From an uncultured Gemmatimonadales bacterium (GTDB taxonomy: Bacteria; Gemmatimonadota; Gemmatimonadetes; Gemmatimonadales; JACORV01), in contig CAWDZR010000016.1 of assembly GCA_963806755.1 (NCBI GenBank), positions 247,249 through 311,248 on the forward strand: 64,000 nt of DNA. The letters are read 5' to 3'. Shown one piece after another: positions 2,340 through 40,581 of this stretch (position 1 is the first letter of the stretch; each line of letters opens with the position of its first letter). Position numbers and translations under genes: made by a program. The notes below the pieces were generated by a model. The model saw nothing but the letters and a program-made list of their open reading frames with translations, had not been told where the DNA came from and searched no databases.

Positions 2340-4391
2340 ATGATGCACCGTCACGCCGTCGCCGTCGCCGCCGCCCTGGCCCTCGTTCCCGGCCCCGCCG
2401 CCGCGCAGGGGCGCCACGCCATCACCGTGCGCGAATTCCTGAGCCTGGCGCGGCCGGCCGAGCCCGCGATCTCGCCCGACGGGCGCTGGGTCGCCTACGA
2501 CGTCGCGGTCCCCGACCTCGCCGGCAACCGCCGGCGCACCGACCTGTGGATGGTGCCCGCCGCCGGCGGCGAGGCCCGGCGGATCTCCACCGACTCGCTG
2601 GGCGGCCGCAGCCCGCGCTGGTCGCCGGACGGCACCGCGCTCGCCTACGTCACGACCCGCGGCGGGACGCCCCAGGTGTGGATCTACCAGCCGGCCACGG
2701 GCGCGCAGCGGCAGCTGACAAGCCTGTCCACCGGGGCCGACGGCCCGCAGTGGGCGCCGGCGGGCGGGCTGATCGCCTTCACCTCCCAGGTCTATCCGGA
2801 GTGCGCCGACGACGCGTGCAACCAGCGGCGCGGCGACTCCCTCGCGCACCTGCCCAGCGACGCGCGGCTCTACGACCATCTCCTCTACCGTCACTGGACC
2901 ACGTGGGACGACGGCACGCGCAGCCACCTGTTCGTGGTGCCCGCCGCCGGCGGCGTCCCGCGCGACCTGCTCGCGGGCAGGGACTGGGACACGCCGGTAC
3001 CGCCCTTCGGCGGATCGTCCGACTACGCCTGGAGCCCCGACGGCACCACGCTCGCCTTCACCACCAAGTTCGGGCGCGACCAGGCCTGGACCACCAACAC
3101 CGACATCTACACCGTGGCCGCGGCGGGCGGCGAGCCGGTCTCCGTCACGGCCGCGATGCGCGGCGCGGAGTCGGCGCCCGCGTGGTCGCCGGACGGGCGG
3201 TACCTCGCCTTCCTGTCCCAGGCAACGCCGGGCTACGAGTCCGACCGCGTCCGCCTCATGGTGAAGGACCTCGCCGGCGGCGCGGTGCGCGAGGTGCCGC
3301 GCGCCTTCGACCGCTGGGTCAACGAGTACGCCTGGGAGCCGAACTCCCAGGGCTTCATCGTGATCGCCGAGGACCACCAGAGCGACCGCTTCTTCCATCT
3401 CCCCCTGACCGGGGGCGCGGTGCACGACGTGCATCCGGGCGGGGACGTCTCGCAGCTCGCCATCGCCGGCTCGCAGCCCGACGCGGTCGCGTACGTCGGC
3501 GACGCCATGAACGCACCGCCCCAGGTCTTCGTGTGGCGGATCAATCACGCCGACCCCACCCCGCCGCTGCAGCTCACCCATCTCAACGCCGACCTGCTGG
3601 CGACGCTCGACATGCCCGCCGGCGCGGAGATCCGCTGGATCGGCGCCGGCGGCGACAGCGTGTACGGCTGGCTCCTCAAGCCGCCGGGCTTCGATCCGGC
3701 GCGCCGCTACCCGCTGCTGGTGCTGGTGCACGGCGGGCCGCAGGGCGCGTGGCTCGACCAGTTCCACCCGCGCTGGAACCCGGAGCTGTTCGCCGCGCCT
3801 GGCTACGTCGTGTTCATGCCCAACCCGCGCGGCTCGACCGGCTTCGGCCAGCGGTTCATCGACCAGATCGCGCGCGACTGGGGCGGCAGGGTTTACGAGG
3901 ACATCATGCGGGGCGTGGAGGTCGCGGCCCGGCTCCCCTACGTGGACTCCACGCGCATGGGCGCGGCGGGCGGCTCGTTCGGCGGCCACATGGTCAACTG
4001 GATCAACGGCCACACCTCGCGCTTCAAGGCGCTGGTGGCGCACGACGGCGACTTCAACCTCTCGTCCCTCTACGGTTCCACGGAGGAGCTGTGGTTCCCG
4101 GAGCACGACCTGGGCGGGCCGCCGTGGGCCGATCGCACCGACTACGAGCGCTGGTCGCCCGACCGCTTCGCGCAGGCCATGCGCACGCCCGAACTGGTGG
4201 TCCAGGGCGGCCAGGACTTCCGGATCCCGGAGACGGAGGGAATGCAGGCGTTCACGGCGCTGCAGCGCCAGGGCGTGCCGTCGCAGTTCCTGTACTTCCC
4301 CGACGAAGGACACTGGGTCCTCAGGCTGCAGGACCAGCTGGTGTGGTGGACGACGGTCCAGGCGTGGCTCGGCCGGTACCTGCACCCCTGA
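2340..4391 (+). CDS. S9-family serine peptidase (prolyl oligopeptidase / dipeptidyl-aminopeptidase type) with N-terminal beta-propeller
   Basis: In-frame 3' part of ORF 1065..4391. ATG 2340 (alternative 2298) precedes the signal-like MMHRHAVAVAAALALVPGPAAAQ. Repeated SPDG/WSPDG propeller motifs, the nucleophile elbow GGSFGGHM, and C-terminal GGQDFRIP and DEGHW are present. Confidence 0.9.
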   Translation: MMHRHAVAVAAALALVPGPAAAQGRHAITVREFLSLARPAEPAISPDGRWVAYDVAVPDLAGNRRRTDLWMVPAAGGEARRISTDSLGGRSPRWSPDGTALAYVTTRGGTPQVWIYQPATGAQRQLTSLSTGADGPQWAPAGGLIAFTSQVYPECADDACNQRRGDSLAHLPSDARLYDHLLYRHWTTWDDGTRSHLFVVPAAGGVPRDLLAGRDWDTPVPPFGGSSDYAWSPDGTTLAFTTKFGRDQAWTTNTDIYTVAAAGGEPVSVTAAMRGAESAPAWSPDGRYLAFLSQATPGYESDRVRLMVKDLAGGAVREVPRAFDRWVNEYAWEPNSQGFIVIAEDHQSDRFFHLPLTGGAVHDVHPGGDVSQLAIAGSQPDAVAYVGDAMNAPPQVFVWRINHADPTPPLQLTHLNADLLATLDMPAGAEIRWIGAGGDSVYGWLLKPPGFDPARRYPLLVLVHGGPQGAWLDQFHPRWNPELFAAPGYVVFMPNPRGSTGFGQRFIDQIARDWGGRVYEDIMRGVEVAARLPYVDSTRMGAAGGSFGGHMVNWINGHTSRFKALVAHDGDFNLSSLYGSTEELWFPEHDLGGPPWADRTDYERWSPDRFAQAMRTPELVVQGGQDFRIPETEGMQAFTALQRQGVPSQFLYFPDEGHWVLRLQDQLVWWTTVQAWLGRYLHP

Positions 4392-4409
4392 GCGCGGGGG
4401 GCGGCGGAC

Positions 4410-6182
4410 GTGCGTAGCCTGCGCGCCCTGCTGCCCTACTACCGGCCCTATCTGGCGCGCATGGCGGTCGGGCTGCTGACGATCGCCGTCGCCAACGTGT
4501 TCACCATGGCCGCGCCCGCGTTCCTGCAGCGCGGCGTGGACGCGCTCGGCAAGCCGGGGGCGGCGCACGTGCTGGCCCTCATGGCCGGCGCCCTGGTGGG
4601 GGTCACCGTCCTGGCGGGCGCCGCCCGGTTCGGGATGCGCCAGCTCCTGAACGCGGTGAGCCGCTGGATGGAGTACGACCTCCGCAACGCGCTGTACCGG
4701 CACCTCGTGACCCTGCAGCCGTCCTTCTACCACCGCACGCCGACCGGCGACATCATGGCGCGCGCCACCAACGACCTGTCGGCCGTGCGGATGGCGGCGG
4801 GCCCCGCGGTGATGTACCTGACCGACACCGTCACCCGCGCGGTGTTCGCGATTCCGCTGATGGTGCGGATCGACTGGCGGCTCACGGTGCTCGGCCTCAT
4901 CCCGCTGCTGGGGATGCCGACGGTCATGGTCCTGCTCGGTCGCACGATCCACCACCGCTTCGAGGCGGTGCAGGAGCACTTCGGGACCCTCACCACGCAG
5001 GCGCACGAGAGCCTGAGCGGCGTGCGCGTGGTGCGCGCCTACCGCCAGGAGGCGAGCGAGACCCGGAAGTTCGCGGCCCTGAACCTCGAGTACCTGCGCC
5101 GCAACATGCGCCTCGCCCGCACCTACGGCGCGCTGTTTCCGCTGATCATGTTCTTCGGCGGCGCCGGGGGCGTGCTGACCCTGTGGTTCGGCTCCCTGCT
5201 GGTGGTGCGCGGCACCGTCACGCTGGGGGAGTACATCGCGTTCACCACCTACCTGGTCCTCCTGGTGTGGCCGATGATCGCGCTCGGCTGGGTCATCAAC
5301 CTGTTCGAGCGCGGCGGCGCGTCCATGGACCGCATCCAGCAGCTCCTGAACGAGCGGCCGGCCATCGCCGACCCGCCGGCGCCCGGCGCGCTGCCGCCGG
5401 CGTCCGGCGGGCGCGCGGTCGAGTTCCGGGACGTGTGGTTCCGCTACCCGGTGCCGCGGCGCACCGACGGCAAGGGCGGGGACCGCGGCTGGGCGCTGGA
5501 GGGCGTGTCGTTCGCCGCCTCCGCCGGCGCGTGGGTCGCGGTGGTCGGCGCCACCGGGTCCGGCAAGACCACGCTGGTCGAGCTGCTCGCCCGGCTCGCC
5601 GACCCCGACCGCGGCGAGATCCTGCTCGACGGCGTACCGCTCCGGGCGCTCGCGCTCGCCGATCTCCGGCGCGCGGTGGGCTTCGTGCCCCAGGAGACGT
5701 TCCTGTTCTCCCAGACGATCGGGGAGAACATCGCGCTCGGCGTGCTGGACCAGGCCGCCGCGGAAGGGGCGGCGCGGGTGGCGCAGCTCCACGAGACCAT
5801 CGCCGCGTTCCCCGCGGGCTACGAGACCATGCTGGGGGAGCGCGGCATCAACCTCTCGGGCGGCCAGCGCCAGCGCACGGCGCTGGCCCGCGCCCTGGCC
5901 CGCCGCCCCGACGTGGTCGTGCTCGACGACGCGCTCTCGGCCGTGGACACCGACACCGAAGCCCAGATCCTGCGCCAGCTCAAGCGGTCGCTGGTGGGCG
6001 TCACCACGCTGGTCGTCTCGCACCGCATCACCGCCGTCCGCGACGCCGACCTCATCGTGGTGCTCGACGGCGGGCGCATCGTGGAGACCGGCAGGCACGA
6101 CGAGCTGTTCGAGCGGCGGGGACGGTACTGGCAATTGCTGCGACGGCAACAGCTGGAGGAATCTCTCGAGGAAGCGAGTTGA
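4410..6182 (+). CDS. ABC exporter, fused permease-ATPase (MsbA/multidrug type)
   Basis: ORF 4410..6182 (GTG start). The N-terminal half is a six-TM-like domain. Motifs: Walker A GATGSGKTT, signature LSGGQRQRTALARAL, Walker B VVVLDDALSAVD and an H-loop SHR. Confidence 0.92.
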   Translation: MRSLRALLPYYRPYLARMAVGLLTIAVANVFTMAAPAFLQRGVDALGKPGAAHVLALMAGALVGVTVLAGAARFGMRQLLNAVSRWMEYDLRNALYRHLVTLQPSFYHRTPTGDIMARATNDLSAVRMAAGPAVMYLTDTVTRAVFAIPLMVRIDWRLTVLGLIPLLGMPTVMVLLGRTIHHRFEAVQEHFGTLTTQAHESLSGVRVVRAYRQEASETRKFAALNLEYLRRNMRLARTYGALFPLIMFFGGAGGVLTLWFGSLLVVRGTVTLGEYIAFTTYLVLLVWPMIALGWVINLFERGGASMDRIQQLLNERPAIADPPAPGALPPASGGRAVEFRDVWFRYPVPRRTDGKGGDRGWALEGVSFAASAGAWVAVVGATGSGKTTLVELLARLADPDRGEILLDGVPLRALALADLRRAVGFVPQETFLFSQTIGENIALGVLDQAAAEGAARVAQLHETIAAFPAGYETMLGERGINLSGGQRQRTALARALARRPDVVVLDDALSAVDTDTEAQILRQLKRSLVGVTTLVVSHRITAVRDADLIVVLDGGRIVETGRHDELFERRGRYWQLLRRQQLEESLEEAS

Positions 6183-6186
6183 CAGT

Positions 6187-6368
6187 CGGCGAGATTTCAG
6201 AACCGTTGCGAGACGCCGAGTTGCGAGAGGTTACGCGATGGGAGTGATCGGAGCGAGCACAGGCCCCGGGCGGCTCCGTAGCTGCCCGAGGCCTGTTCTG
6301 TTTCCGACCACTCGCATCTCACAACCACTCGCAACTCGGCGTCTCGCAACGGTTCTGCAATCTCGTTG
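6187..6368. repeat. About 182-nt near-perfect inverted repeat / giant hairpin filling the spacer between convergent genes
   Basis: Positions i and 12555-i are complementary from 6187/6368 down to 6274/6281. 6198-6227 (CAGAACCGTTGCGAGACGCCGAGTTGCGAG) is the perfect reverse complement of 6328-6357. The apical loop is TCCGTA at 6275-6280. Confidence 0.9.
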
Positions 6369-6383
6369 CCGCGTGCTGCGATC

Positions 6384-7091
6384 TCAGAGACGCGACTTGA
6401 GGAACCCGGGCGTCAGCCGCTGGAACCATCCCGACAGCAGCGTGAAGCTCCCCGTCAGCATCAGCACGCCGGCCACCAGCAGCAGCGCGCCCGCCACCCG
6501 CTCCACCCATCCGACGTAGCGCCGGAAGCGCTGGAACCAGCCGAGGAACCCCTCCAGCGCCCAGGCGGCCACCAGGAACGGCAGCGCCAGGCCGAGGGAG
6601 TACGCGAGCAGGAGGCCCAGTCCCTGCCCCAGGTCGGCGCGGGTGGAGGTGTAGAGCAGGATGGACCCGAGGATCGGGCCGATGCACGGGGTCCAGCCGG
6701 CGCCGAAGGCCATGCCGACCAGCACCGACCCCAGGAAGCCGAGCGGCTTGTCGGACAGCTGGACGCGGGCCTCGCGCGCGAGGAACGGAAGGCGCAGCGC
6801 GCCGAGCGCGACCAGGCCGAAGACAATGATCAGCGCCCCGCCCACGCGCTCGAGCCACAGCTGGTACGCGTGCAGGAGCCGGCCCACCTCGGTGGCAGTG
6901 GCGCCGAGGGCGATGAAGATGAGCGAGAAGCCGGCGACGAACAGGATGGCGTGCAGCAGTGCCAGGTGGCGCCGCGCGCCGATCTCGGCGACGCCGCTCA
7001 CCCCGGTGAGAAAGGAGAGATAGCTCGGGACGAGCGGGAGGACGCAGGGCGACAGGAACGACAGCAGCCCCGCGAGGAAGGCGACGAGCAA
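6384..7091 (-). CDS. ccdA: Cytochrome c biogenesis thiol-disulfide transporter CcdA (DsbD-beta family)
   Basis: ORF 6384..7091. LSFLSPCVLPLVPSYLSF and GAGWTPCIGPILGS carry the two conserved TM cysteines. The profile is multi-pass hydrophobic. Confidence 0.9.
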   Translation of the reverse strand: MLVAFLAGLLSFLSPCVLPLVPSYLSFLTGVSGVAEIGARRHLALLHAILFVAGFSLIFIALGATATEVGRLLHAYQLWLERVGGALIIVFGLVALGALRLPFLAREARVQLSDKPLGFLGSVLVGMAFGAGWTPCIGPILGSILLYTSTRADLGQGLGLLLAYSLGLALPFLVAAWALEGFLGWFQRFRRYVGWVERVAGALLLVAGVLMLTGSFTLLSGWFQRLTPGFLKSRL

Positions 7092-13744: not shown

Positions 13745-13944
13745 GCCCGCTCCAGTCTTCGAGTTCCGTGGCACTCTGCCGCTCTGACCGCCGGCACCGC
13801 AGGATTGGCGCGCCCACTCCGCCGCCGTGGCCGATTCCGACCGGCCGGAACCGGCACGGCGCTTGCCTTCGAGCCCCGCGGAGGCCGGCCGTGGGGCCGG
13901 CACGACACCAGCATAAGGTAAGCGATGCGAAAGGAGGCTGCACC

Positions 13945-14421
13945 ATGTTCGCCATCACCCGTTCCACCAACCCGGCCTACGCCGACGTGTCCACGCTCCA
14001 GGGCCGCCTGAACCGCCTGTTCGACGAGGCGTTCCGCGGCTGGCCGCTGGCCACCCAGGAAGACGGCGGCTCGCTGGTCGGCCAGTGGGTGCCGCCCGTG
14101 GACGTTTTCGAGGACAAGGACGCCGTGCAGATCATGGCCGAGCTGCCGGGCGTGAAGCCGGAAGACGTCAGGATCTCGCTCGAGAACAGCGTCCTCACCG
14201 TCCGGGGCGAGAAGCGCCAGGTCGCCGAGGAGGACACCGACCGCGTGCACCGCTACGAGCGGTACTACGGCGTGTTCGAGCGCTCCTTCAGCGTCCCGTC
14301 CAGCGTGGACGCCGAGCACATCAAGGCGAGCTACGACCTCGGCGTGCTGACGGTCCGGCTGCCCAAGATCGAGCGGGCCAAGCCGCGGCAGATCGAGGTC
14401 AAGGTCGAAGCGGCGAGGTAA
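13945..14421 (+). CDS. Hsp20/alpha-crystallin small heat-shock protein
   Basis: In-frame part of ORF 13768..14421. ATG 13945 is preceded by AAGGAGG (13931-13937). The alpha-crystallin domain reads PPVDVFEDKDAVQIMAELPGVKPEDVRISLENSVLTVRGEK..FERSFSVPSSVDAEHIKASYDLGVLTVRLPK. Confidence 0.93.
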   Translation: MFAITRSTNPAYADVSTLQGRLNRLFDEAFRGWPLATQEDGGSLVGQWVPPVDVFEDKDAVQIMAELPGVKPEDVRISLENSVLTVRGEKRQVAEEDTDRVHRYERYYGVFERSFSVPSSVDAEHIKASYDLGVLTVRLPKIERAKPRQIEVKVEAAR

Positions 14422-14422
14422 T

Positions 14423-14484
14423 GGAGGAGGTTGGTGGGTTGTAGGTGGTGGGGGGTGGGGACGACAACCCACAACCCACCACCC
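14423..14484. repeat. Heptamer-repeat hairpin between convergent genes (G-rich arm facing ACAACCC-ACAACCC-ACCACCC)
   Basis: GGTTGGT GGGTTGT AGGTGGT GGGGGGT GGGG (14429-14460) is followed by ACAACCC ACAACCC ACCACCC (14464-14484). GGTGGGTTGT (14433-14442) is perfectly complementary to ACAACCCACC (14471-14480). This is probably a bidirectional terminator. Confidence 0.75.
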
Positions 14485-14485
14485 G

Positions 14486-15202
14486 CTAGCCACTCACCGT
14501 TGCCCTCAGCTCCACCTGCCCCACCTGCGGCCTGCGGAACAGATCCCGCCATCCGTCTTTCCGCCGCACCACCAGCACCACGTCGCCCACCGGCTCCGGC
14601 TCGAGTCCAAGCAGGGTCACGAACAGCACGTCCGGAACGCGCGGCGGCAGGCTCACCCGCCAGGCGTGCCCGTGCCACTCGACCGGCATGGCGCCTCCGC
14701 CGGCACGGCGCCAGGCGCCGCGCCGCAGCGGACGGTCCACGAAGACGTCGTCCTCCACCTTGGTCACGTCGGGCGCGAGCCGCTCCCCGTCCCGGAAGAA
14801 CAGCGGGTCGAAGGGCTCGCCTTCCTGGCGGGCGTAGTTGGCCTCGACCGCGTCGTCGAAGTCCTCGAGCGCGGCGGCGTCGGCGCGCCACTCGAGGTGG
14901 TGCCGGATCTCGTGCGTGAGCGTCTCCCACGCCTCCTGCCGCCAGTCGAATCCCGGCGCTGCGGCGGCGAGCGCCGCGAACGACCCGTAGTGCAGGAGCA
15001 CGGAGGAACGCAGCTCGGCCCCGCCCTCGCCGGGCGCGCCGAAGCTGTGGGGGACGCACTCGCCCAGCGTGTACACGCCGGCCCTGAGCGGGTGCGGTAC
15101 GGTCTTGGGGGTCACCTCGACGCCGGCGATGCCGGCCTGGAATTCGGCCGGCAGCTCGCGCGTCATCTCGCGGATCATGGCCTCGAAGTCGCGGCGCCGC
15201 AT
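14486..15202 (-). CDS. Zincin-like metallopeptidase-domain protein (HExxH) with uncharacterised C-terminal half
   Basis: ORF 14486..15202. The sequence contains ETLTHEIRHHLEW. The N-terminal roughly 130 aa resemble the small 'metallopeptidase family protein' class. Confidence 0.65.
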   Translation of the reverse strand: MRRRDFEAMIREMTRELPAEFQAGIAGVEVTPKTVPHPLRAGVYTLGECVPHSFGAPGEGGAELRSSVLLHYGSFAALAAAAPGFDWRQEAWETLTHEIRHHLEWRADAAALEDFDDAVEANYARQEGEPFDPLFFRDGERLAPDVTKVEDDVFVDRPLRRGAWRRAGGGAMPVEWHGHAWRVSLPPRVPDVLFVTLLGLEPEPVGDVVLVVRRKDGWRDLFRRPQVGQVELRATVSG

Positions 15203-15229
15203 CGCCCTTTCGTGCCGGCGGGCCGGCCG

Positions 15230-30241: not shown

Positions 30242-31027
30242 CTAAACGGCCGACGGCTGCGCCGCGGGCGCCGCCGTCGGCACCGTCAGGATGCGCGCCC
30301 CATTCTCCGTGATCAGCACCGTGTGCTCGAAGTGCGCCGAGAGCGACCCGTCGGCCGTCACCACGGTCCACTTGTCCGGCAGCGTGCGCACCTGGGCACC
30401 GCCCACGTTGACCATCGGCTCGATGGCCACGGTCATCCCCGCCATCAACCGGGCGCCGCGGTGCGGCGTGCCGTAGTTCGGGATCTGCGGCTCCTCGTGG
30501 AACTGCGTCCCGATCCCGTGCCCGACCAGCTCCCGCACCACCCCGTAGCCCTCCCCCTCCGCGACCTGCTGCACGGCACTCCCGATGTCGCCGACGTGCC
30601 CGCCCGCCCGCGCCGCCGCGATCCCGGCCGCCAGCGCGCGCTCGGTCGTCGCCAGGAGCTTGCGGGCGTCCGCCGACACCTCGCCCACCATCGCGGTCAC
30701 GGCGCCGTCCCCGTGCAGGCCGCCGACGCACGCCCCCACGTCCACGCTGAGGATGTCCCCCTCGGCCAGCACCCGCTTCTTGGACGGGATGCCGTGCACC
30801 ACTTCGGCGTTGATCGAGGTGCACAGTGTCGCGGGGAAGCCGTACAGCCCCTTGAAGCTGGGGGTCGCGCCGTCGTGCGAGCGGATGAACTCCTCCGCCA
30901 GCTGGTCCAGCTCCCAGGTGGTCTGCCCCGGCGCCACCCGCGAGCGCACCAGCGCCAGCACGTCGGCCACGATGCGGCCGGCGCGCGACATCAGCTCGAT
31001 TTCCCTCGGCGACTTGATCGTGATCAC
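30242..31027 (-). CDS. map: Methionine aminopeptidase, type I
   Basis: In-frame 3' part of ORF 30242..31711. GTG 31027 (VITIKSPREIELMSRAG) overlaps the adk stop as GTGA. VVHGIP, DVGA, GHGIG and FEHTV metal ligands are present. Confidence 0.93.
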   Translation of the reverse strand: MITIKSPREIELMSRAGRIVADVLALVRSRVAPGQTTWELDQLAEEFIRSHDGATPSFKGLYGFPATLCTSINAEVVHGIPSKKRVLAEGDILSVDVGACVGGLHGDGAVTAMVGEVSADARKLLATTERALAAGIAAARAGGHVGDIGSAVQQVAEGEGYGVVRELVGHGIGTQFHEEPQIPNYGTPHRGARLMAGMTVAIEPMVNVGGAQVRTLPDKWTVVTADGSLSAHFEHTVLITENGARILTVPTAAPAAQPSAV

Positions 31028-31593
31028 GCCGCTTTGCCCACCGCCTTCCTCACCCGCGCCTGGATCTCGTCCACCGTCCCCGCGCCGGGGACGCACCGGA
31101 CGACGCCCTGGCGCTCGTAGTACGCCACCAGCGGCGCCGTCTGGGTCTGATACACCTGAAGCCGCTGTTTGATGGACTCGAGGTTGTCGTCGCTGCGGCC
31201 CTCCTTGGCCGCCCGCGCCAGGAGCCGCTTCACCAGCTCGTCCTCGGGAACCTCGAGCACCAGCACCTGGTCCACCCGCTCCTTGCGACCGGCCAGGAAC
31301 GCGTCCACCGCCTCCGCCTGCGGCACGGTGCGCGGGAACCCGTCCATCAGCATGCCGCGCCGGCCCGCCGGCGAGTCGAGGATCTCGCGGATCAGCGAGA
31401 GAATCACCTGGTCCGGCACCAGCAGCCCCTTGTCCATGTACGTCTTGGCCTCGAGGCCGAGGGGCGTCCCCTGTTTCGCCGCGGCCCGCAGCAGCTCGCC
31501 GGTCGAGATCTCCGCGATGCCCAGGTGCTGCGCGATGAGCTGGCCCTGCGTGCCCTTGCCGGAGCCGGGGGCTCCGAGGATCATGAGATGCAC
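31024..31593 (-). CDS. adk: Adenylate kinase (short form, no zinc lid)
   Basis: ORF 31024..31593. ILGAPGSGKGTQ, ISTGELLR, GFPRTVPQAE and RSDDN are present. Confidence 0.95.
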   Translation of the reverse strand: MHLMILGAPGSGKGTQGQLIAQHLGIAEISTGELLRAAAKQGTPLGLEAKTYMDKGLLVPDQVILSLIREILDSPAGRRGMLMDGFPRTVPQAEAVDAFLAGRKERVDQVLVLEVPEDELVKRLLARAAKEGRSDDNLESIKQRLQVYQTQTAPLVAYYERQGVVRCVPGAGTVDEIQARVRKAVGKAA

Positions 31594-31620
31594 GGCGATA
31601 CCTCGAAGATCGGTCCCGTG

Positions 31621-31762
31621 AGAAGAGAGAGGTGAGAGGTGAGAAGGTCAAGTGAGGGGTGAGCGGACGAAAAACGTGAGAGGTGCGGGTGGACTTCTCA
31701 CGCTGTCCCACCCCTCACCTCTCACTTGAACGTCTCACCTCTCACTGCTCACCTCTCACCTT
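31621..31762. repeat. Nested inverted repeat made of GAGAGGT/GGTGAGA heptamers and their complements in the secY-adk spacer
   Basis: The left arm is GAGAGGTGAGAGGTGAGAAGGTCAAGTGAGGGGTGAG (about 31626-31663). The right arm is CACCCCTCACCTCTCACTTGAACGTCTCACCTCTCACTGCTCACCTCTCACC (31709-31760). GTGAGGGGTG (31652-31661) perfectly complements CACCCCTCAC (31709-31718). A separate hairpin sits at the centre. Confidence 0.85.
31670..31702 (-). terminator. Intrinsic terminator between secY and adk
   Basis: On the minus strand, CGTGAGAAGT (31702..31693) pairs with ACCTCTCACG (31684..31675). This is a 10-bp stem with one G:U and an 8-nt loop, followed directly by TTTTT (31674..31670). Confidence 0.7.
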
Positions 31763-31766: not shown

Positions 31767-33077
31767 TCACATATACCGCTGCCGGCCCCGGAACCGGACC
31801 CGCCCTTCCTTCATGAACCCGTCGTACTGCCGCAGGATCATGTGCTGCTGCATCTGCTGCACCGTATCGAGCGCCACGCCGACCACGATCAGCAGTGCCG
31901 TCCCGCCGAACTTGAAGGGCACGTTGAAGGCGTCGAAGATGATGATCGGCAGGACCGCGATGGCCGTGAGGAAAATCGCCCCCGGCAGCGTCACCCGCGA
32001 CAGCACTTCGTCGATGTACTCCGCGGTGCGCGTGCCCGGCTTCACGCCGGGGATGAACCCGCCCTGCTTCTTGAGGTTCTCGGCCAGGTCCACCGGGTTG
32101 AAGATGATCGCGGTGTAGAAGTAGGTGAAGAAGATGATCAGCACCGAGTACAGGACGTAGTAGACCCACGAGCCCGGCTGGAAGTACTCGGCGAAGTCGT
32201 GCAGCACCGTGACGTTGGAGAACTGCGCCAGGGTGCCCGGCACGATGATGATGGACTGCGCGAACACGATCGGCATCACGCCCGCGGAGTTGATCCGGAG
32301 CGGGATGAAGGACTTCTGGCCTTCGCGGATCCGGCCCCGGCCCATCACCTTGCGCGGGATCTGGATCGGGATGCGCCGCGCCGCCACGGTGATGGCCACG
32401 GTGACCCACACCACCACCAGCATGATGATGGCCAGCACGATCAGCCGCGGGACGTCCACCGCGCCGGTGCGGATGTACTCGAGCGTCTTGCCGATGGCGG
32501 GCCAGCCGCCCTGCACGATCGAGAAGAAGATCAGCAGGCTCATCCCGTTGCCGAGGCCGCGCTCCGTGATCTGCTCGCCGAGCCACATCACGAAGATGCC
32601 GCCGACGGTGAGCACGAAGGTGGTGGTCATCCGGAACCCCCACCCGGGGGTCGCCACGGCACCCTGGAGCTGCTCGATGAAGATGGCGATGCCCCAGGCC
32701 TGCCCCGCGGCGAGGCCCACGGTGAGGTAGCGGGTCCACTGGGTGATCCGCTTCCGCCCCTCTTCCTCGCGGTTCAGCTTCTCGACGTACGGGAACACGG
32801 CGCCCATCAGCTGCCAGAAGATGCTGGCCGAGATGTAGGGCATGATGCCGAGCGCGAGCACGGTCGCGCGCGACAGCCCGCCCCCGACGAACATGTCGTA
32901 GATCCCGAACAGCGTGCCGCTCTGGCGGCTGAAGAACTGGGTGAGGGCGGTGACGTCCACGCCCGGGACGGTGATGTGGGAGCCGACCCGGTACAGCAGC
33001 AGGCACAGGAGCGTGAAGAGGATCTTCTCTTTGAGCTCGGGGATCTTGAACAGGTTCGGGATCCGCGGCGCGGTCAC
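31767..33077 (-). CDS. secY: Preprotein translocase subunit SecY
   Basis: ORF 31767..33077. ELKEKILFTLLCLLLYRVGSHITVPGVD, GIMPYISASI and the 10-TM profile are present. Position in the spc operon fits. Confidence 0.97.
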   Translation of the reverse strand: MTAPRIPNLFKIPELKEKILFTLLCLLLYRVGSHITVPGVDVTALTQFFSRQSGTLFGIYDMFVGGGLSRATVLALGIMPYISASIFWQLMGAVFPYVEKLNREEEGRKRITQWTRYLTVGLAAGQAWGIAIFIEQLQGAVATPGWGFRMTTTFVLTVGGIFVMWLGEQITERGLGNGMSLLIFFSIVQGGWPAIGKTLEYIRTGAVDVPRLIVLAIIMLVVVWVTVAITVAARRIPIQIPRKVMGRGRIREGQKSFIPLRINSAGVMPIVFAQSIIIVPGTLAQFSNVTVLHDFAEYFQPGSWVYYVLYSVLIIFFTYFYTAIIFNPVDLAENLKKQGGFIPGVKPGTRTAEYIDEVLSRVTLPGAIFLTAIAVLPIIIFDAFNVPFKFGGTALLIVVGVALDTVQQMQQHMILRQYDGFMKEGRVRFRGRQRYM

Positions 33078-33080
33078 CGG

Positions 33081-33554
33081 CTACTCCTCGACTCTCCCGC
33101 CGGCGCCCTCGACCTTGGCGCGCGCGGATGCGGAGACGGCGAGCCCCTTCAGCACCAGGCCCTGCGGGGCCTCGCCTTCGCCGAGCACCTTCACGGCGCG
33201 GTCGGCGTGGGCGACGAGCCCGCGCTCGGCCAGGACCGCCGCGGTGACCTCGCCGCCGGCGAACGGCGCCAGCGACCTGAGGTTCACCACCTGCGCCCGC
33301 TCCTTGAACGGGTTCGTGAACCCGCGCTTGGGGACGCGCCGGATCAGCGGCATCTGCCCGCCCTCGAAGCCGGGGCGCACGTGCCCGCCGGACCGCGCCT
33401 TCTGGCCCTTGTGGCCGTGGCCGGACGTCTTGCCGTGGCCCGAGCCGGGGCCGCGGCCCTTGCGCTTGGGAGCGTGCGTGGAGCCCCGCGGCGGCCGCAG
33501 CGACTCCAGCCCGATCCGACCGCTCCCGTGCCCCGTGCCTGTCTCGGCCATCAC
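33081..33554 (-). CDS. rplO: 50S ribosomal protein L15
   Basis: ORF 33081..33554. KRKGRGPGSGHGKTSGHGHKGQKARSGG is present and the operon position fits. Confidence 0.93.
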   Translation of the reverse strand: MMAETGTGHGSGRIGLESLRPPRGSTHAPKRKGRGPGSGHGKTSGHGHKGQKARSGGHVRPGFEGGQMPLIRRVPKRGFTNPFKERAQVVNLRSLAPFAGGEVTAAVLAERGLVAHADRAVKVLGEGEAPQGLVLKGLAVSASARAKVEGAGGRVEE

Positions 33555-33763
33555 CCCTCCTCGACCGGCGACACCTCGATGAGGTGCCGCACCAGATTCA
33601 GCATGCCGCGCATGGACGGCGTGTCGGTGACGACCACGACGTCCTGATGATGCTTGAGCCCGATGGACCGCAGCGTGGCGCGGTGCGGCGCCGGATGCCC
33701 GATGCCGCTCCTGACCTGCTTGACCCGGAGCCGGCCCCCGGCCGTGCCAGCCTTAGGCGCCAT
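33551..33763 (-). CDS. rpmD: 50S ribosomal protein L30
   Basis: ORF 33551..33763. [30 protein letters not shown] is present and the operon position fits. Confidence 0.9.
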
Positions 33764-34400
33764 GGCCCACCTCGCCCTGCCGCGCCCGGTACCCGAGCGA
33801 CGCCGCGTCCACGCCCCGCTCCTTCGCCACCCGCTGCACCGTGGTGAGGTGCTGCAGCCCGTCGAGCGTGGCCCGCACCATGTTGTGGGGATTGGTGCTG
33901 CCCAGGCTCTTGGTGAGGATGTCCTGGACCCCGGCGCACTCGAGCACCGCGCGCACGGCCCCGCCGGCGATGACCCCGGTGCCCGAGGCCGCCGGCTTGA
34001 GGAGCACGCGCCCCGCGCCGTGCCGCCCGATGATTTCGTGCGGGATGGTCGCGCCGGTGCGCGGCACGCCGATCAGCGTGCGGCGCGCCGCCTCGACCGC
34101 CTTGCGCACCGCCTCGCTCACCTCGTTCGCCTTGCCGGTCGCGACCCCGACGTGGCCCGCGCCGTCGCCCACCGCCACCAAGGCGTTGAAGCTGAACCGC
34201 CGGCCGCCCTTCACCACCTTGGCGACGCGGTTGATGCTGATCACGTTCTCGATCAGCTCGCTCTCGCGATCCCGCTCCCGGTCGCGCCGGTCCCGGCGCG
34301 GCGCATCGCGGTGCGGCTGCTGCCCCTGCGGCCCGCGCTGCTGCTGCCCCTGCGGCCCCTGTCCCTGCGGCCCGCGCTGCTGCTGGTCCCTGTCCGCCAT
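33753..34400 (-). CDS. rpsE: 30S ribosomal protein S5 with Q/G/R-rich N-terminal extension
   Basis: ORF 33753..34400. [36 protein letters not shown] is present. The roughly 45-aa N-terminus reads [23 protein letters not shown]. Confidence 0.93.
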
Positions 34401-34403
34401 CCG

Positions 34404-34775
34404 CTAGAACTCCAGTCCGCCCTTGCGCGCGCCTTCGGCCACCGCCTTGACGCGCCCGTGATAGGCGTAGCCCGCCCGGTCAAAAACCGCCTTCGTGATC
34501 CCGCGCTCCTTCGCCCGCCCGGCCAGCGCCAGGCCCACCGCGAACCCGCGGGCGACCTTGCCGCTCTTGTCCGCCTTCACCTGCTCGGAGTTGTCGGCGA
34601 CGCCCAGCAGCACCGTGCCGCGGTCGTCGTCCACGAGGTGGGCGTAGATGTGCTTCAGCGAGCGGTAGACGACCAGCCGCGGTCGCTCCGCCGTCCCGCG
34701 CACCTTCTGCCGCACCCGCAGGTGCCGCCGGCGGCGGTGCTCGTCCGCGTTCCTGGGCTTCCGTACCGGTCTCAT
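34404..34775 (-). CDS. rplR: 50S ribosomal protein L18
   Basis: ORF 34404..34796. I prefer ATG 34775, 1 nt after the rplF stop. RLVVYRSLKHIYAHLVDD..FDRAGYAYHGRVKAVAEGAR is present. Confidence 0.9.
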   Translation of the reverse strand: MRPVRKPRNADEHRRRRHLRVRQKVRGTAERPRLVVYRSLKHIYAHLVDDDRGTVLLGVADNSEQVKADKSGKVARGFAVGLALAGRAKERGITKAVFDRAGYAYHGRVKAVAEGARKGGLEF

Positions 34776-34776
34776 G

Positions 34777-35325
34777 CTACTTGGTCGCTCCCGCACCCGT
34801 CTTGCCGGCCTTGCGCCGGACGTGCTCGCCGGTGTAGCGGATCCCCTTGCCCTTGTAGGGCTCGGGGGGGCGCACCGCGCGGATCTCCGCGGCCACCCGG
34901 CCCACCAGCTCCTTGTCGCTGCCCGCCACCTTCACCACCGTCGGCTGGTCGGCCGTGATCTTGATTCCGGCCGGCGCCTTGAACTCCACGTTGTGGGAGT
35001 ACCCCACGATCAGGTTCACGCCGTACGGCTTCGTTTCGGCGCGGTAGCCGACGCCCACGATGTCCAGCGTCTTCTCGTACCCCTTGGTCACGCCCTCGAC
35101 CATGTTCGCGACCAAGGTCCGCGACAGGCCGTGGAGCGCCTTGTGCTTGGTCTCGTCGGACGGCCGCGTCACCAGCAGCGTGGCCCCGTCGAGCTGGATC
35201 CCCAGGTCGGCGGGGAGCGTGTGGTGCAGCTCGCCCTTGGGCCCCTTGATCGAGACGACCTGCCCGGCCACCGAGGCGGTCACGCCCTTGGGGATCGGGA
35301 TCGGCCGCTTGCCGATGCGGGACAT
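34777..35325 (-). CDS. rplF: 50S ribosomal protein L6
   Basis: ORF 34777..35325. MSRIGKRPIPIPKGV is present and the two-domain L6 pattern fits. Confidence 0.95.
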   Translation of the reverse strand: MSRIGKRPIPIPKGVTASVAGQVVSIKGPKGELHHTLPADLGIQLDGATLLVTRPSDETKHKALHGLSRTLVANMVEGVTKGYEKTLDIVGVGYRAETKPYGVNLIVGYSHNVEFKAPAGIKITADQPTVVKVAGSDKELVGRVAAEIRAVRPPEPYKGKGIRYTGEHVRRKAGKTGAGATK

Positions 35326-35335
35326 GCGCGCCTCC

Positions 35336-35734
35336 CTACCAGACGACGGCGAGCAGCTCGCCGCCGAGGTGCGCCGTCCGGGCGTCGCGGTCGCTCATCA
35401 ACCCGCGCGGGGTCGAGAGGATCGCCATGCCCAGGCCGTTGCGGACGCGCGGGATCTGCCGCACCCCGACGTAGCGCCGCAGCCCGGGCGCCGACACGCG
35501 CTTGAGCTCGCGGATCACCGGCTCGTCGCCGTCGTGGTACTTCAGGTACAGCCGCAGCACGCCGTGCCGGCCGTCGTCCAGGAGGTTGAAGTCCTGGATG
35601 TAGTGATTGTCGCGGAGCAGCCGCGCGATCTCCACCTTCAGCTTGGAGACCGGCACGTCCACCCGGCGATGCCTGGCCAGGCACGCGTTGCGGATGCGCG
35701 TCAGCATGTCGGCCACGGGATCGGTCATGCTCAT
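35336..35734 (-). CDS. rpsH: 30S ribosomal protein S8
   Basis: ORF 35336..35734. [24 protein letters not shown] is present. Confidence 0.95.
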
Positions 35735-35776
35735 AGGTTCGCTCGACTCCTCTTCACCGGTCGGTCCGATCCAGGC

Positions 35777-35962
35777 TCACCAGCTGCTCTTGCGAACGCC
35801 CGGGATCTCGCCCCGCAGGGCCAGGTCCCGGAAGCAGATGCGGCACAGGCCGAACTTGCGCAGGGTCGCCCGCGAGCGCCCGCACCGCTGACAGCGGTGG
35901 TAGGCGCGGGTCTTGAACTTCGGCACCCGCTTGACCTTCTCGGTCCAGCACTTCTTCGCCAT
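35777..35962 (-). CDS. rpsN: 30S ribosomal protein S14, short zinc-binding type (type Z)
   Basis: ORF 35777..35962, 61 aa. [20 protein letters not shown] carries the CxxC..CxxC motif. Confidence 0.93.
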
Positions 35963-35980
35963 CGGCTCCCTCGCCTCGGA

Positions 35981-36700
35981 TCAGGCCACGTCCACCGGCT
36001 GCTCGCCCTGGAACGGCACGCCCAGCTCCTTCAGGAGCGCCATCGCCACGTCGTCGCGTCCGGCGTCGGTCACGATCGTGATGTCCATCCCGTGGATCCG
36101 CTCGACCTTGTCGAAGTCGATCTCCGGGAAGATCATCTGTTCCTTGATGCCGAGGGTGTAGTTCCCCCGGCCGTCGAAGCTCTTGCTCGGCAGCCCGCGG
36201 AAGTCGCGGATCCGCGGCACCGCGATGGTGATGAAGCGGTCGAGGAACTCCCACATCCGCGCGCCGCGCAGCGTCACGCTGGCGCCGATGGGCATCCCCG
36301 CCCGGAGCCCGAAGTTCGAGATCGCCTTCTTGGCCCGCGTCACCATCGCCTTCTGGCCGGTGATCGCCCCCATCTCCGCCACGATGGCCTCGAGCGCCTT
36401 GGGGGCCTTCGGCGCCTCCCCGAGGCCGACGTTGAGGACCACCTTCACCACCCGCGGGATCTGGTGCGGGTTGGTGAAGCCGAAGGCGCGCGCCAAGGCC
36501 GGCCGCACGCGCTCGGTGTACACGATCCCCAGCCGCGCCGGCGGCGCCGGCTCGTACACGACGGGCGGGCCCTTCGGCTCGGCCGGGTGCTCCGCGTCCT
36601 TGCCCTTGCCGCCCCCCTTGCCGCCCTTCTGCTCCTTCGGGGGCCTGGGAGGCTTCGCGGCCCTGGGCTCCGCCGTCTCCTGCTTGGTCTCGTCCGCCAT
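35981..36700 (-). CDS. rplE: 50S ribosomal protein L5 with about 55-aa K/P/G-rich N-terminal extension
   Basis: ORF 35981..36700. The core is [43 protein letters not shown] 36700 lies 5 nt after the rplX stop, so the extension is probably translated. Confidence 0.88.
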
Positions 36701-36705
36701 GGTCC

Positions 36706-37095
36706 TTACCGGTTCCGCGGGATCGGTTGACCGGAGCGCACGGCCACGCGCTCCACCGTCCCGTCCTGGTCCACCCGCCGCCGCACGCGGGTGGGACGGT
36801 CGTCCTTGGGATCGATGAGCATCACTTTGGACGCGGCGATGGGGCCGGGGAACTCCACGATCTGGCTCTCCTCCCCCTCCTGCCGCGCGCGGCGGTGGCG
36901 CTTGAGGATGTTGATCCCCTCCACCACCACCCGCCCCTTGGCGGGCAGGGCGCGCAGCACCTTGCCGCGCTTGCCCTTGTCCTCGCCCGAGATCACCACC
37001 ACCAGGTCGCCCTTGGTGATGTGCATCCGGACCCGCGCCCGCGGCGTGCCCTTGCCCTTGGCGCGCTCCCGCTTCCGATAGACCAGCCGCCGCAT
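36706..37095 (-). CDS. rplX: 50S ribosomal protein L24 (start 37095, or ATG 37026 giving the canonical MHITKGD N-terminus)
   Basis: ORF 36706..37095. [24 protein letters not shown] (KOW motif) is present. Confidence 0.88.
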
Positions 37096-37096
37096 G

Positions 37097-37465
37097 CTAC
37101 AAGACCTCCGGCGCGAGGCTCACGATCTTCATGAACCGCTTCTCGCGCAGCTCGCGGCCCACCGGCCCGAAGATGCGGGTCGCGCGGGGCTCGCCCTGCT
37201 CGTCGATGATGACGGCGGCGTTCTCGTCGAAGCGGATGTAGCTCCCGTCCTTGCGCCGCGTCTCCTTGGCGGTGCGCACCACCACGGCGCGCGCCACCTC
37301 CCCCTTCTTGACCGTGCCCGTGGGCAGGGCGTCCTTGATGGCGACGATCACGACGTCGCCCAGCCCCGCGTAGCGGCGCTTCGAGCCGCCGAGCACGCGG
37401 ATCACCAGCGCCCGCTTCGCGCCCGAGTTGTCAGCGATCCTGACGATCGTTTCCTGCTGAACCAC
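37097..37465 (-). CDS. rplN: 50S ribosomal protein L14
   Basis: ORF 37097..37465. [25 protein letters not shown] is present. Confidence 0.96.
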
Positions 37466-37476
37466 GGCCGCCTCCC

Positions 37477-37758
37477 CTACTTCGCCCGCTCGACGATCGC
37501 GATCACCCGCCAGCGCTTGGTCTTCGACAGCGGCCGCGTCTCGGTGATCCGCACCACGTCCCCGACGTGCGCCTCGTTGCGCTCGTCATGCGCCACCACG
37601 CGGCTCGTGCGCGTCGCCTGCTTGCCGTACAGCCCGTGGGTCACCCGGCGCGTCAGCGTCACGACGACCGACTTGTGCATCTTGTCGCTCACCACCGTGC
37701 CCGTCCGCGTCTTGCGCTGCCCGCGCTGCACCGGCGCCTGCTGCTGCTCGCTCGTCAT
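37477..37758 (-). CDS. rpsQ: 30S ribosomal protein S17
   Basis: ORF 37477..37758. [43 protein letters not shown] is present. Confidence 0.94.
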
Positions 37759-37970
37759 GGCTTCACCTTGGCCGCGCGCTCCGCCAGCACCGTCTTCAGC
37801 CGGGCCACCGTGCGCCGCGCCGTCCTGAGGTCCATCGGGTTGTTCAGCACTTCGGTCGCCGCCTTGAACCGCAGGCCGAACGATTCCTTCTCGTACTCGG
37901 CCAGCTTCGCCTTGAGCTCCGCGTCGGTCAGCTCGCGGATCCGCACGGACGTCAGGTTCTCGAGCGCCAC
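37755..37970 (-). CDS. rpmC: 50S ribosomal protein L29
   Basis: ORF 37755..37970. [25 protein letters not shown] is present. Confidence 0.92.
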
Positions 37971-37974
37971 CGGG

Positions 37975-38385
37975 CTACTCCTCCCGCAGCACGAAGCGGG
38001 ACTTGATCGGCAGCTTGGCCGAAGCCAGCGCCAGGCTCTGGCGCGCCATGTCCTCCGGCACGCCTTCGATCTCGAACATCATCCGCCCGATCTTCACCGG
38101 GCACACCCAGCCTTCGGGGTTCCCCTTGCCCTTCCCCATCCGCGTCTCGGCCGGCTTCTTGGTGATCGGCTTGTCCGGGAACAGCCGGATCCACAGCTTC
38201 CCGCCGCGCTTCATGTGGCGCGTCATCGCCACGCGCGCCGCCTCGATCTGCCGGTTGGTGACCCACCCGGCCTCGAGGGCCTGCAGCCCGAAGTGGCCGA
38301 ACGCCACCGTCTGGCCGCGCGTGGCCACGCCGCGCATGCGGCCTTTCATCTGCTTGCGGAACTTGACCCGCTTGGGCGCCAGCAT
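37975..38385 (-). CDS. rplP: 50S ribosomal protein L16
   Basis: ORF 37975..38385. [26 protein letters not shown] is present. Confidence 0.96.
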
Positions 38386-38387
38386 GC

Positions 38388-39047: not shown

Positions 39048-39049
39048 CG

Positions 39050-39406
39050 CTAACGCTCCTTGGTCGCCACGAGAATGGTGACGTGGCTGGTGCGCTTGTG
39101 CAGGGGCGTCGCCCGCCCCATCGCCGCCGGCTGGAACCGCTTCAGGGTCGGCCCCTCGTCCACCGTGGCCGTCTTGACGAACAGCTCGTCCTCGTCGAGC
39201 CGCTCCGCGGCCCGCTCCGCCTTGACGCGCGCGTTCGCCACCGCCGACAGCAGCACCTTCCGGACCGGCACCGCCGCGCCCTTCTTGCTGAACTTGAGCA
39301 GCGAGAACGCCTCGCCCACCGGCCGCCCGCGGATCATGTCCACCACCAGCCGGACCTTGCGCGCCGACTGCCGCAGCGTCCGCTGCACCGCCCGGGCCTC
39401 GGTCAC
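39050..39406 (-). CDS. rplV: 50S ribosomal protein L22
   Basis: In-frame 3' part of ORF 39050..40642. GTG 39406 overlaps the rpsS stop (GTGA). [47 protein letters not shown] is present. Confidence 0.92.
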
Positions 39407-40578: not shown

Positions 40579-40581
40579 GCC

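Follow-up and report, generated by a model that had tools for sequence, protein, structure and literature searches.

A long hairpin between an ABC exporter gene and ccdA as a copy of a dispersed palindromic repeat family in uncultured Gemmatimonadales

The hairpin between the ABC exporter gene and ccdA

The window analysed here is a stretch of 64,000 nucleotides (nt) of DNA from an uncultured Gemmatimonadales bacterium (assembly GCA_963806755.1, contig CAWDZR010000016.1), and the element under study is a long hairpin at positions 6187-6368, which lies between two convergent genes encoding an ABC exporter (4410-6182, plus strand) and a CcdA/DsbD_TM protein (6384-7091, minus strand). The hairpin takes up about 91% of the 201-nt spacer (6183-6383), beginning 5 nt past one stop codon and finishing 16 nt before the other.

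A repeat search delimits two inverted arms of 86 nt (6190-6275 and 6280-6365), which are 85% complementary and 4 nt apart, while the predicted RNA fold joins 6187 with 6368 and continues inward to a 4-nt loop at 6276-6279, giving arms of about 88 base pairs (bp). The minimum free energy of 6187-6368 is -143.3 kcal/mol on the plus strand and -146.7 kcal/mol on the minus strand, compared with a mean of about -71 +/- 4.6 for dinucleotide shuffles (z = -15.0 and -17.0, respectively), and 0 of 200 shuffles were as low. The initial annotation had described a long near-perfect hairpin and proposed a folding-energy calculation; both the repeat search and the fold confirm the structure, with each strand far more stable than its shuffles. 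The outer 30 nt are perfectly complementary, as had been stated: the 30-mer CAGAACCGTTGCGAGACGCCGAGTTGCGAG occupies 6198-6227 on the plus strand and 6328-6357 on the minus strand with 0 mismatches, where 0 such matches are expected by chance, and no further copy exists in the window even with 3 mismatches tolerated. Non-Watson-Crick positions number 13 of 86 in the arms, near the earlier hand count of about 11 mismatches plus some G:U pairs. Two details required correction. The loop, previously given as 6 nt, is 4 nt long, since 6275 and 6280 form a U:A pair; and the 9-mer direct repeat assigned to each arm is found only in the left one (GTTGCGAGA at 6205 and 6220), the right arm holding one copy (6342-6350) plus GTTGCGAGt, so that the unit repeated exactly on both arms is the 8-mer GTTGCGAG.

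The features of the element are as follows (L numbers here and below denote fetched loci).

6183-6383, no strand: spacer between the convergent stop codons, 201 nt; the ABC exporter TGA lies at 6180-6182 and the ccdA stop at 6384-6386 on the minus strand
6187-6368, no strand: full hairpin of this copy, including an 11-nt outer extension in which 6187-6197 pairs with 6358-6368
6204-6351, no strand: family core unit (C/A)GTTGC...GCAAC(G/T), 148 nt, homologous between non-orthologous copies; a short orthologous allele lacks it as one block (L102, compared with L023)
6198-6240, plus strand: conserved module of the 5' arm, CAGAACCGTTGCGAGACGCCGAGTTGCGAGAGGTTACGCGATG, GAG-type, recognised by nhmmer (E = 1.6e-13), information content and variant types; it contains, in order, CAG (6198-6200), tandem GTTGCGAG at 6205 and 6220, and GGTT
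6315-6357, minus strand: conserved module of the 3' arm, reading CAGAACCGTTGCGAGACGCCGAGTTGCGAGTGGTTGTGAGATG (nhmmer E = 6.7e-16)
6241-6259, plus strand: inner heptad-periodic part of the 5' arm, GGAGTGATCGGAGCGAGCA, pairing imperfectly with 6296-6314
6260-6295, no strand: type A apex, a GC-rich, terminator-like stem-loop CAGGCCCCGGGCGGCT-CCGT-AGCTGCCCGAGGCCTG with its loop at 6276-6279
6296-6305, plus strand: T-rich tail TTCTGTTTCC right after the apex stem, on the side of the ABC exporter transcript, 6 T of 12
6250-6259, minus strand: opposite-strand tail TGCTCGCTCC, less T-rich, 3 T of 12
4410-6182, plus strand: ABC exporter (ABC_membrane + ABC_tran), convergent neighbour, from Pfam-type domains
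6384-7091, minus strand: CcdA/DsbD_TM cytochrome c biogenesis protein, convergent neighbour, from domains and homologues

A dispersed family of intergenic elements

The hairpin is a copy of a repeat family, not a regulatory structure unique to ccdA or the ABC exporter. A degenerate core, TTGCSAGACGSCRAGTTGCSAG, was designed from orthologous spacers; it carries about 40 bits, and about 1 chance match is expected in 596 Gb. When one genome per species was searched, the core matched at least 100 stretches of 8 kb, nearly all in 13 metagenome-assembled genomes (MAGs) of Gemmatimonadales or other Gemmatimonadota with many stretches each, and at least 120 further stretches were matched in JGI metagenomes from soil or peat. 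The initial annotation had named a single-copy element as the outcome that would argue against a mobile origin; the core motif proved massively multi-copy in Gemmatimonadales genomes and soil metagenomes, which is the opposite. The exact 30-mer CAGAACCGTTGCGAGACGCCGAGTTGCGAG, which had been proposed as the query for a copy search, has 0 matches in JGI metagenomes, indicating that this variant is private to the window's lineage, and the family becomes visible only with the degenerate core. Within the window, an nhmmer profile of the arms finds only one element of the family.

In 842 kb, the same profile detected 190 arms at E <= 1e-3. Some 20 independent elements beyond those that triggered retrieval give a density near 20-25 per Mb, at which a genome would hold of the order of 100 copies, a figure extrapolated from sampled 8-kb blocks and not a whole-genome count. 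The core has 0 matches in viral contigs, and phages were rejected as vectors of the family on this ground. One Azospirillum match (L086) among the matches listed is free of any flanking family feature and fits the chance expectation. Another locus, L070 (DOUU01000446.1, labelled Deltaproteobacteria bacterium UBA9160), contains family arms together with a GGTGAGA-type repeat and has flanks about 81-87% identical to the Gemmatimonadales locus L033; the contig probably belongs to Gemmatimonadales and was binned wrongly. Among the metagenome loci L115-L234, many matches sit no more than about 100 nt from the end of their contig (L146, L156, L160, L167, L182, L193 and L194 are examples), which suggests that the family repeats break short-read assemblies of these organisms. 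No Rfam family matches the window at its gathering score, and plant miRNA precursor models returned by a permissive Rfam search reached less than half their thresholds and were dismissed as generic hairpin matches. Full-text literature searches found no published description of a dispersed repeat family in Gemmatimonadota, and the family, a set of dispersed intergenic palindromic repeats of about 150-180 nt in soil Gemmatimonadales, is apparently undescribed.

The anatomy of the family was derived from its arms; counts of arms, pairing, types and contexts, here and below, refer to the core-motif matches listed and the fetched loci. In an alignment of 116 arms on the motif, conservation begins at a CAG located 8 nt upstream of TTGC and reaches about 38 nt downstream, giving the consensus CAG-nnn-AGTTGCSAGACGSCRAGTTGCSAG-TGGTT-nCSAG-nnnnSAG, with weaker AG peaks every ~7 nt outward on both sides. 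This module of about 40 nt, which can also be written CAG-nnn-AGTTGCSAG-ACGSCRAG-TTGCSAG-TGGTT, is set in heptad-periodic nnnnSAG repeats. With the 22-mer masked, AG-AG autocorrelation reaches 3.1 times expectation at lag 7, 1.9 times at lag 14 and 1.6 times at lag 21, and control DNA displays the codon period only.

Most modules occur as inverted pairs. A complementary partner exists for 79 of 125 motif instances, mostly at an inner distance of about 85-102 nt (100 in the window), and motif-to-motif spans form two classes that correspond to two kinds of apex, ~132 nt for apex B and ~141-145 nt for apex A, the window's span being 144 nt. The 5' position is taken by the G-rich arm in 70 cases versus 9. 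Homology between non-orthologous copies stops about 67-79 nt either side of the axis, equivalent to ~6198-6357 in the window, and conservation peaks inside the element and fades gradually outward. At the nnn bases and outside the CAG, the arm-to-arm match is 16-45% across 48 copies, near random. In most copies arm-to-arm complementarity ends at the module, whereas the window copy also matches in the nnn bases and 11 more; the picture of perfect terminal inverted repeats around a degenerate interior, drawn in the initial annotation, describes this copy but not the majority.

Several variants of this layout were encountered. Tandem expansion of an arm unit is present in L094 (~4590-4650), where three copies of a ~22-nt unit, GGCGTCTCGCAACTGTTCTGGTCGT, stand at the outer arm end, and L100 contains four or more tandem 15-mers, AGTTGCCAGACGCCA, at 4358-4450. 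A mini element in L082 (4194-4250) has the module paired directly with its complement (AGTTGCGAGACGGCGAGTTGCGAGTCGGCGTCTCGCAACT), without interior or apex, in a spacer whose ortholog in L031 holds a full-size element of the other variant type. Solo arms followed by C-rich heptamer arrays (CCCTAAC, CCCTACA, ACACCCT) occur in L060 (~6575-6630), L067 (~3420-3450), L085 (~1-40) and L095 (~1340-1390), while L042 (7893-7972) harbors a hairpin of ATTGCGG heptamers. The window itself contains a second long hairpin at 31618-31759, with 67-nt arms that are 79% complementary and GGTGAGA-type heptamers, between minus-strand genes at 31024-31626 and 31767-33059. Hairpins of this type recur at non-orthologous loci of other MAGs (L023 644-790, L096 583-719, and also L018, L022, L029, L033, L059 and L070) and therefore constitute a dispersed sibling family whose sequence is unrelated to that of the focal one. 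A third hairpin of the window (14423-14498), whose 5' arm is strongly G-rich (GGTTGGTGGGTTGTAGGTGGTGGGGGGTGGG) and whose 3' arm is C-rich, fills the spacer of the convergent genes 13879-14421 (plus strand) and 14486-15208 (minus strand); among the fetched loci, its 13-mer has no further copy. Various heptamer repeats seem to characterise these intergenic regions in general.

Gene context was assessed with a caller based on GC content at third codon positions, whose calls agree with the genes verified by Pfam and span 90% of the window, some of its divergent calls being doubtful. All 109 of 109 elements are intergenic. Where both neighbours lie within 200 nt, 44 contexts are tandem, 20 convergent and 5 divergent, and among spacers of at least 100 nt, elements occupy 56% of the convergent, 40% of the tandem and 22% of the divergent ones. 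Solo arms are oriented in the sense of the upstream gene in 34 cases versus 16, a weak bias in a noisy solo classification. Farther along the window, a long run of short minus-strand genes (33000-47200) is followed by two very large minus-strand genes (55077-62779); by layout alone these resemble the ribosomal-protein/secY/adk cluster and rpoB-rpoC, which suggests that the window is core chromosome.

Orthologous spacers, variant types and arm symmetry

The ccdA-ABC spacer could be compared across 11 lineages, namely the window and ten others, with L051 and L094 recognised among the core-pattern matches. Source-named CcdA homologues belong to Gemmatimonadales, and the best match is 91% identical, which indicates that the window's own genome is absent from the protein collection. 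The gene order Fur, PvlArgDC, CcdA and then the convergent ABC exporter is kept in most of the ten. A related hairpin fills the spacer in 10 of 11, with spacer lengths of 174-201 nt in most filled lineages and a longer spacer in L094 owing to the tandem expansion; in L007 the spacer measures 23 nt and contains no element. The filled spacers carry different types of element:

Window and L094: motif GTTGCGAG, GAG-type; GC-rich apex, apex A
L051: motif GTTGCCAG, CAG-type; apex A-like
L001, L006, L003, L108, L109, L111 and L113: CAG-type; apex B, palindromic ...CCAGTACTGG...

In a neighbour-joining tree of ccdA DNA, the window groups with L001, L006 and L007 (~87% identity), while identity to the window is ~82.5% for L003 and ~79-80% for L094 and L051. 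Since L007 is nested among filled relatives, its empty spacer is most simply a loss. The window's element is more like that of the distant relative L094 than those of its closest relatives, and types likewise differ between lineages at other orthologous loci; such differences imply in-place replacement or conversion faster than the ~13% divergence of ccdA DNA. Import of the window's spacer by recombination from a CAWETG-like lineage was rejected, as the flanks adjacent to the element are closer to L006 and L001 than to L094. Vertical inheritance in place also occurs, as indicated by a derived quirk, AAGGAGGA(A/C)GTGG on one arm, common to L109, L111 and L113.

These comparisons bear on the possibility that the hairpin arose at this locus alone, as an unusually long bidirectional terminator or a substrate of RNase III, and has no relation to repeats. 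Its convergent position, strong apex hairpin and the element-sized spacer in 10 of 11 lineages would agree with such an origin, but the same module and architecture recur at hundreds of unrelated loci, and other family types have been swapped in at this very locus between close relatives. A locus-specific origin is extremely improbable and, as an exclusive explanation, is refuted by the multi-copy core, although a terminator function is retained in the preferred reading of the hairpin as a family copy.

The type differences reflect two coordinated variants. Three variable positions of the core are tightly correlated, reading G/G/G 43 times and C/A/C 40+14 times with few mixed cases among the matches listed, and the resulting GAG-type and CAG-type arms occur in genome-specific proportions:

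CAWETG: 16 GGG arms, 0 CAC arms
CAVQXV: 1 GGG arm, 11 CAC arms
JBGPOE: 0 GGG arms, 4 CAC arms
Window: 2 GGG arms, 0 CAC arms

Both arms share one type in 17 of 18 apex-A elements, and these positions supply the sole strongly covarying pairs in RNAalifold, in which only the module stems could be registered. For the interior, the median arm-to-arm identity is 0.64 within an element, 0.62 between the best arms of different elements and 0.50 in the shuffled control. Because arms within an element are no more alike than arms of different elements, the interior stem is not kept by compensatory change, and selection on pairing was rejected as the reason for the hairpin. The element is two inverted copies of one arm unit, drifting independently. 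The window copy is unusually symmetric, with an interior identity of 0.76, an overall complementarity of 85% and perfect outer 30-mers, and both its arms, in the 5' and 3' modules, have a derived C for the family A just before GTTGC. We infer that this exceptional symmetry stems from recent arm-to-arm copying or a recent origin and not from selection on each base pair.

In another interpretation, each arm would be primarily an array of binding sites, one to a heptad, for a sequence-specific trans-acting factor, either protein or RNA, whose co-evolution with the elements the GAG and CAG types would suggest; the hairpin would be a by-product of having the array on both strands around a terminator. 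Heptad periodicity is strong beyond the conserved 22-mer, pairing itself is not conserved, and the sense orientation of solo arms (34 versus 16) points the same way; a precedent exists in the binding of one cold-shock protein per heptamer (PMC4679880). The variant type, moreover, reaches the fast-diverging inner heptads, which read GAG in 58% and CAG in 27% of cases on GGG-type arms, versus 28% and 52% on CAC-type arms. Subfamily descent alone, however, explains type-specific interiors, the orientation bias is weak and drawn from a noisy classification, and no candidate factor was identified. Sibling hairpins with unrelated heptamers (GGTGAGA, ATTGCGG), present in these very genomes, point instead to a general process of heptamer slippage or palindrome formation. 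A binding array is accordingly considered unlikely as the primary explanation, and the hairpin continues to be read as a member of a repeat family.

Spread, apex function and relation to known systems

The way in which the family spreads was approached through its boundaries. For 25 cores of 113-153 nt, delimited as (A)GTTGC...GCAAC(T), flanking k-mers (k = 2-8) match as direct repeats only to the degree that permuted pairs do; perfect matches number at most 2, at k = 2. No target-site duplication (TSD) is evident in this formal test, as in the initial annotation, and its absence disfavours a MITE (miniature inverted-repeat transposable element) of the DDE type. A classical MITE would be an internally deleted insertion sequence (IS) moved by a DDE transposase that recognises terminal inverted repeats. 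The elements share with MITEs a small size, a non-coding nature, multiple copies, a palindromic form and conserved inverted modules, and one core-sized presence/absence difference is known, in which the ~138-nt core of L023 is exactly what L102 is missing; the outer CAGAnn/nnTCTG heptad flanks are retained there, and the junction is ambiguous by 3-4 nt. This short allele fits either core insertion or excision, or a hairpin-promoted deletion. The deletion in L007 is wider and has different boundaries. Beyond the missing TSD, the most conserved part of the element does not sit at a sharp terminus, no longer element with the same ends plus a transposase was seen in 1.58 Mb of sampled loci, and viral contigs hold no copies. 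A classical MITE is therefore very unlikely.

Genes bracketed by two elements encode TPR-like, VIT-family, aspartase and four-helix-bundle proteins, as judged by eye from translations, and none is a transposase. The four-helix-bundle gene encodes a protein of ~130 amino acids that resembles the 23S rRNA intervening-sequence protein, and its inverted modules lie ~500 nt apart; as an autonomous element it was rejected, since all 8 loci represent one orthologous locus. In L014 (~160-750) and L195 (~200-750), the ~500-bp segment bounded by modules is inverted relative to its flanks when compared with L152 (4486-5004), L055 (1806-2324), L144, L161, L211 and L223, and in L026 the four-helix-bundle gene is internally deleted, with only residues 4-24 and 102-126 left. 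The inversion and the deletion indicate that the modules mediate rearrangements; the inversion could reflect recombination between repeats or an invertible switch. Whole units of the family may spread in a copy-and-paste manner without target-site duplication, for which a single-strand hairpin-dependent transposase outside the sample, or recombination or gene conversion between copies, would be candidate mechanisms. A TSD-free hairpin-dependent process or inter-copy recombination appears to be the most likely of these.

At its apex, the window's element has the anatomy of a terminator. Apex-A elements share AGAAnAGGCCCCG, a variable loop region and CGGGGCCTnTTCT, an arrangement found in at least 14 copies, and the 46-nt apex window 6255-6300 has folding energies of -33.5 (plus strand) and -33.3 (minus strand) kcal/mol (z = -5.8 and -5.2). 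These genomes also contain free-standing canonical terminators of this style, for example in L053 (GAAAGGCCCCGGGAAGCTCCGGGGCCTTTTCT) and L030, and solo modules stand directly upstream of canonical terminators in L053, L030 and L029. Apex B, on the other hand, consists of two inverted AGTTGCCAG units in miniature and does not resemble a terminator. Judged from this anatomy, the window's element probably doubles as a predicted intrinsic terminator that acts in both directions, on the ABC exporter and on ccdA. Its apex would end both convergent transcripts, and on read-through the long arms may add a duplex that protects the 3' end or is cleaved by RNase III. A bidirectional terminator had been put forward as an alternative to a mobile element; the apex fits it, but the two readings combine and are not rivals.

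In sum, the hairpin probably belongs to a family of dispersed, non-coding palindromic repeats that is particular to one clade of uncultured Gemmatimonadales, and the apex of this copy is terminator-like. The family is multi-copy and intergenic, favours convergent spacers, and is inherited in place as well as replaced or lost between lineages. The leading proposal of the initial annotation, an element of the MITE or REP (repetitive extragenic palindromic) kind, is supported insofar as the core is dispersed and multi-copy, with polymorphism in presence and type at orthologous spacers; strict membership among MITEs, which would entail a TSD, or among REPs and REPINs, which would entail a palindromic REP unit and a RAYT (REP-associated Y1 transposase of the HUH class), does not hold.

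Several observations weigh against this reading or parts of it. The copy number is an extrapolation, and a few copies are called in divergent spacers; some of these calls are errors of the gene caller, and the sequence of L102 appears to be tandem. The loci compared gave no clear-cut case of a new insertion, and the two short alleles (L007 and L102) may each be deletions. An Escherichia coli RayT probe, validated against PDB 4ER8, gave no tblastn hit at E <= 0.01 in element-bearing DNA, first over 0.84 Mb and then over 1.58 Mb, and an unvalidated IS200 TnpA probe found nothing at the same threshold in the 1.58 Mb, a sample estimated to cover 250 elements from a dozen or more genomes; a RAYT that is highly divergent or lies outside the sample may exist. 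As to the apex, the minus-strand tail is weakly T-rich (3 of 12, compared with 6 of 12 on the plus strand), the T tract is interrupted (TTCTGTTT), and a simple consensus terminator scan does not call the site; in our reading the scan extends the stem into the long arms, so that the bases after its stem are not T-rich. Since the CAG/apex-B subfamily is without a GC-rich terminator-like apex, terminator function cannot explain the whole family.

The family is of wider relevance in that Gemmatimonadota are abundant soil bacteria, almost unstudied genetically, and a family of ~100 copies per genome fills spacers between their housekeeping genes, carries terminator-like hairpins, varies in type from genome to genome and can drive inversions and deletions. 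It bears on the assembly and binning of MAGs, where many contigs end in repeats, and on the annotation of 3' ends and terminators in the phylum, and it could serve as a marker for strain typing. A bolder and unlikely proposal is that the elements represent a new class of terminator-carrying palindromic repeat that spreads and becomes homogenised without TSD or a RAYT/IS200 enzyme and whose heptads are read singly by a lineage-specific factor, co-evolving with them in GAG-type versus CAG-type genomes. If this were true, the GGTGAGA and ATTGCGG siblings would point to a general process of heptamer-palindrome formation in Gemmatimonadota intergenic DNA.

The element resembles a REPIN or a MITE but falls outside both definitions. 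The closest analogue is formed by REPINs or REP doublets (bacterial interspersed mosaic elements, BIMEs) with their RAYT, described from Pseudomonas and E. coli (PMC3116915, PMC3337134, PMC2817692). If the family were REPINs, as these are characterised in PMC3116915 and PMC3337134, two inverted REPs would be mobilised as single-stranded hairpins by a single-copy RAYT located elsewhere in the genome. Much is shared: two inverted conserved modules that form a long imperfect hairpin, the occurrence of singlets, an extragenic location commonly downstream of genes, tens to hundreds of copies (here on the order of 100 per genome), mostly vertical persistence at orthologous sites, genome-specific sequence populations and the absence of TSD. 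The unit of ~40 nt, however, is not a short imperfect palindrome like the 20-40-nt REP (folded alone, z = -0.7 for the plus arm and -2.7 for the minus arm), it has no unpaired GTAG or CGTC head, with CGTC internal to the module only, and the elements measure ~150-180 nt against ~70-110 nt and possess heptad-periodic arms and a terminator-like apex. Additionally, the RayT and IS200 searches were empty over 1.58 Mb of element-bearing DNA, the genes bracketed by elements are not transposases, and Gemmatimonadota are not mentioned in the surveys of REPs and RAYTs consulted. Membership among REPINs is thus unlikely.

Correia elements of Neisseria and the enterobacterial ERIC/IRU sequences are intergenic elements of 100-200 nt with inverted ends and presence/absence polymorphism, and form long RNA hairpins that can terminate transcription or serve as targets for RNase III cleavage. 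Correia elements have sharp 26-bp terminal repeats and duplicate a TA target. The present family is comparable to both in its size class, intergenic location, inverted ends, hairpin RNA and presence/absence polymorphism, while it differs from Correia elements in having no TSD and a conservation peak that is internal and not terminal. Integron attC sites, which have core sites in the order R''(RYYYAAC)...R'(GTTRRRY) and occur in cassette arrays beside an integrase, were considered and rejected, since the 5' arm bears GTTGCGAG and the 3' arm CTCGCAAC, in the opposite order, and neither fits the consensus; the context also differs, the copies being singletons between housekeeping genes.

Cyanobacterial STRR sequences are heptamer tandem repeats of intergenic regions. 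Other heptamer repeats of bacterial intergenic DNA, such as TAACTGA (PMC4679880) and GGGNATC (PMC4692102), form simple direct arrays. The present elements are like these in their 7-nt period, intergenic location, rarity between divergent genes, several heptamer families per genome and occasional tandem arrays (L100, L094), but their non-identical heptads are conserved as a composite module of ~40 nt, in an inverted pair that forms a ~180-nt hairpin, so that the relation is one of resemblance and not membership. With bidirectional intrinsic terminators they share a GC-rich apex stem-loop between convergent genes, an A-rich run upstream and a T-rich run downstream, and they differ in ~50 bp of extra conserved, repeated stem on each side, the interrupted T tract and an apex-B subfamily without a terminator.

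The superfamily of CGTC-tagged REPs also consists of palindromic repeats apparently without a dedicated transposase; its stem-loops measure 20-40 nt, with loops of 4-5 nt, and CGTC marks one end as an unpaired tag (PMC3733652). The family described here likewise carries CGTC on the C-rich strand of its module (GGCGTCTCGCAAC) and apparently has no dedicated transposase; its CGTC is internal to a non-palindromic module, and it is therefore not a member of that superfamily. It provides, beside the CGTC-tagged REPs, a further case in which palindromic repeats are maintained although no dedicated transposase is obvious.

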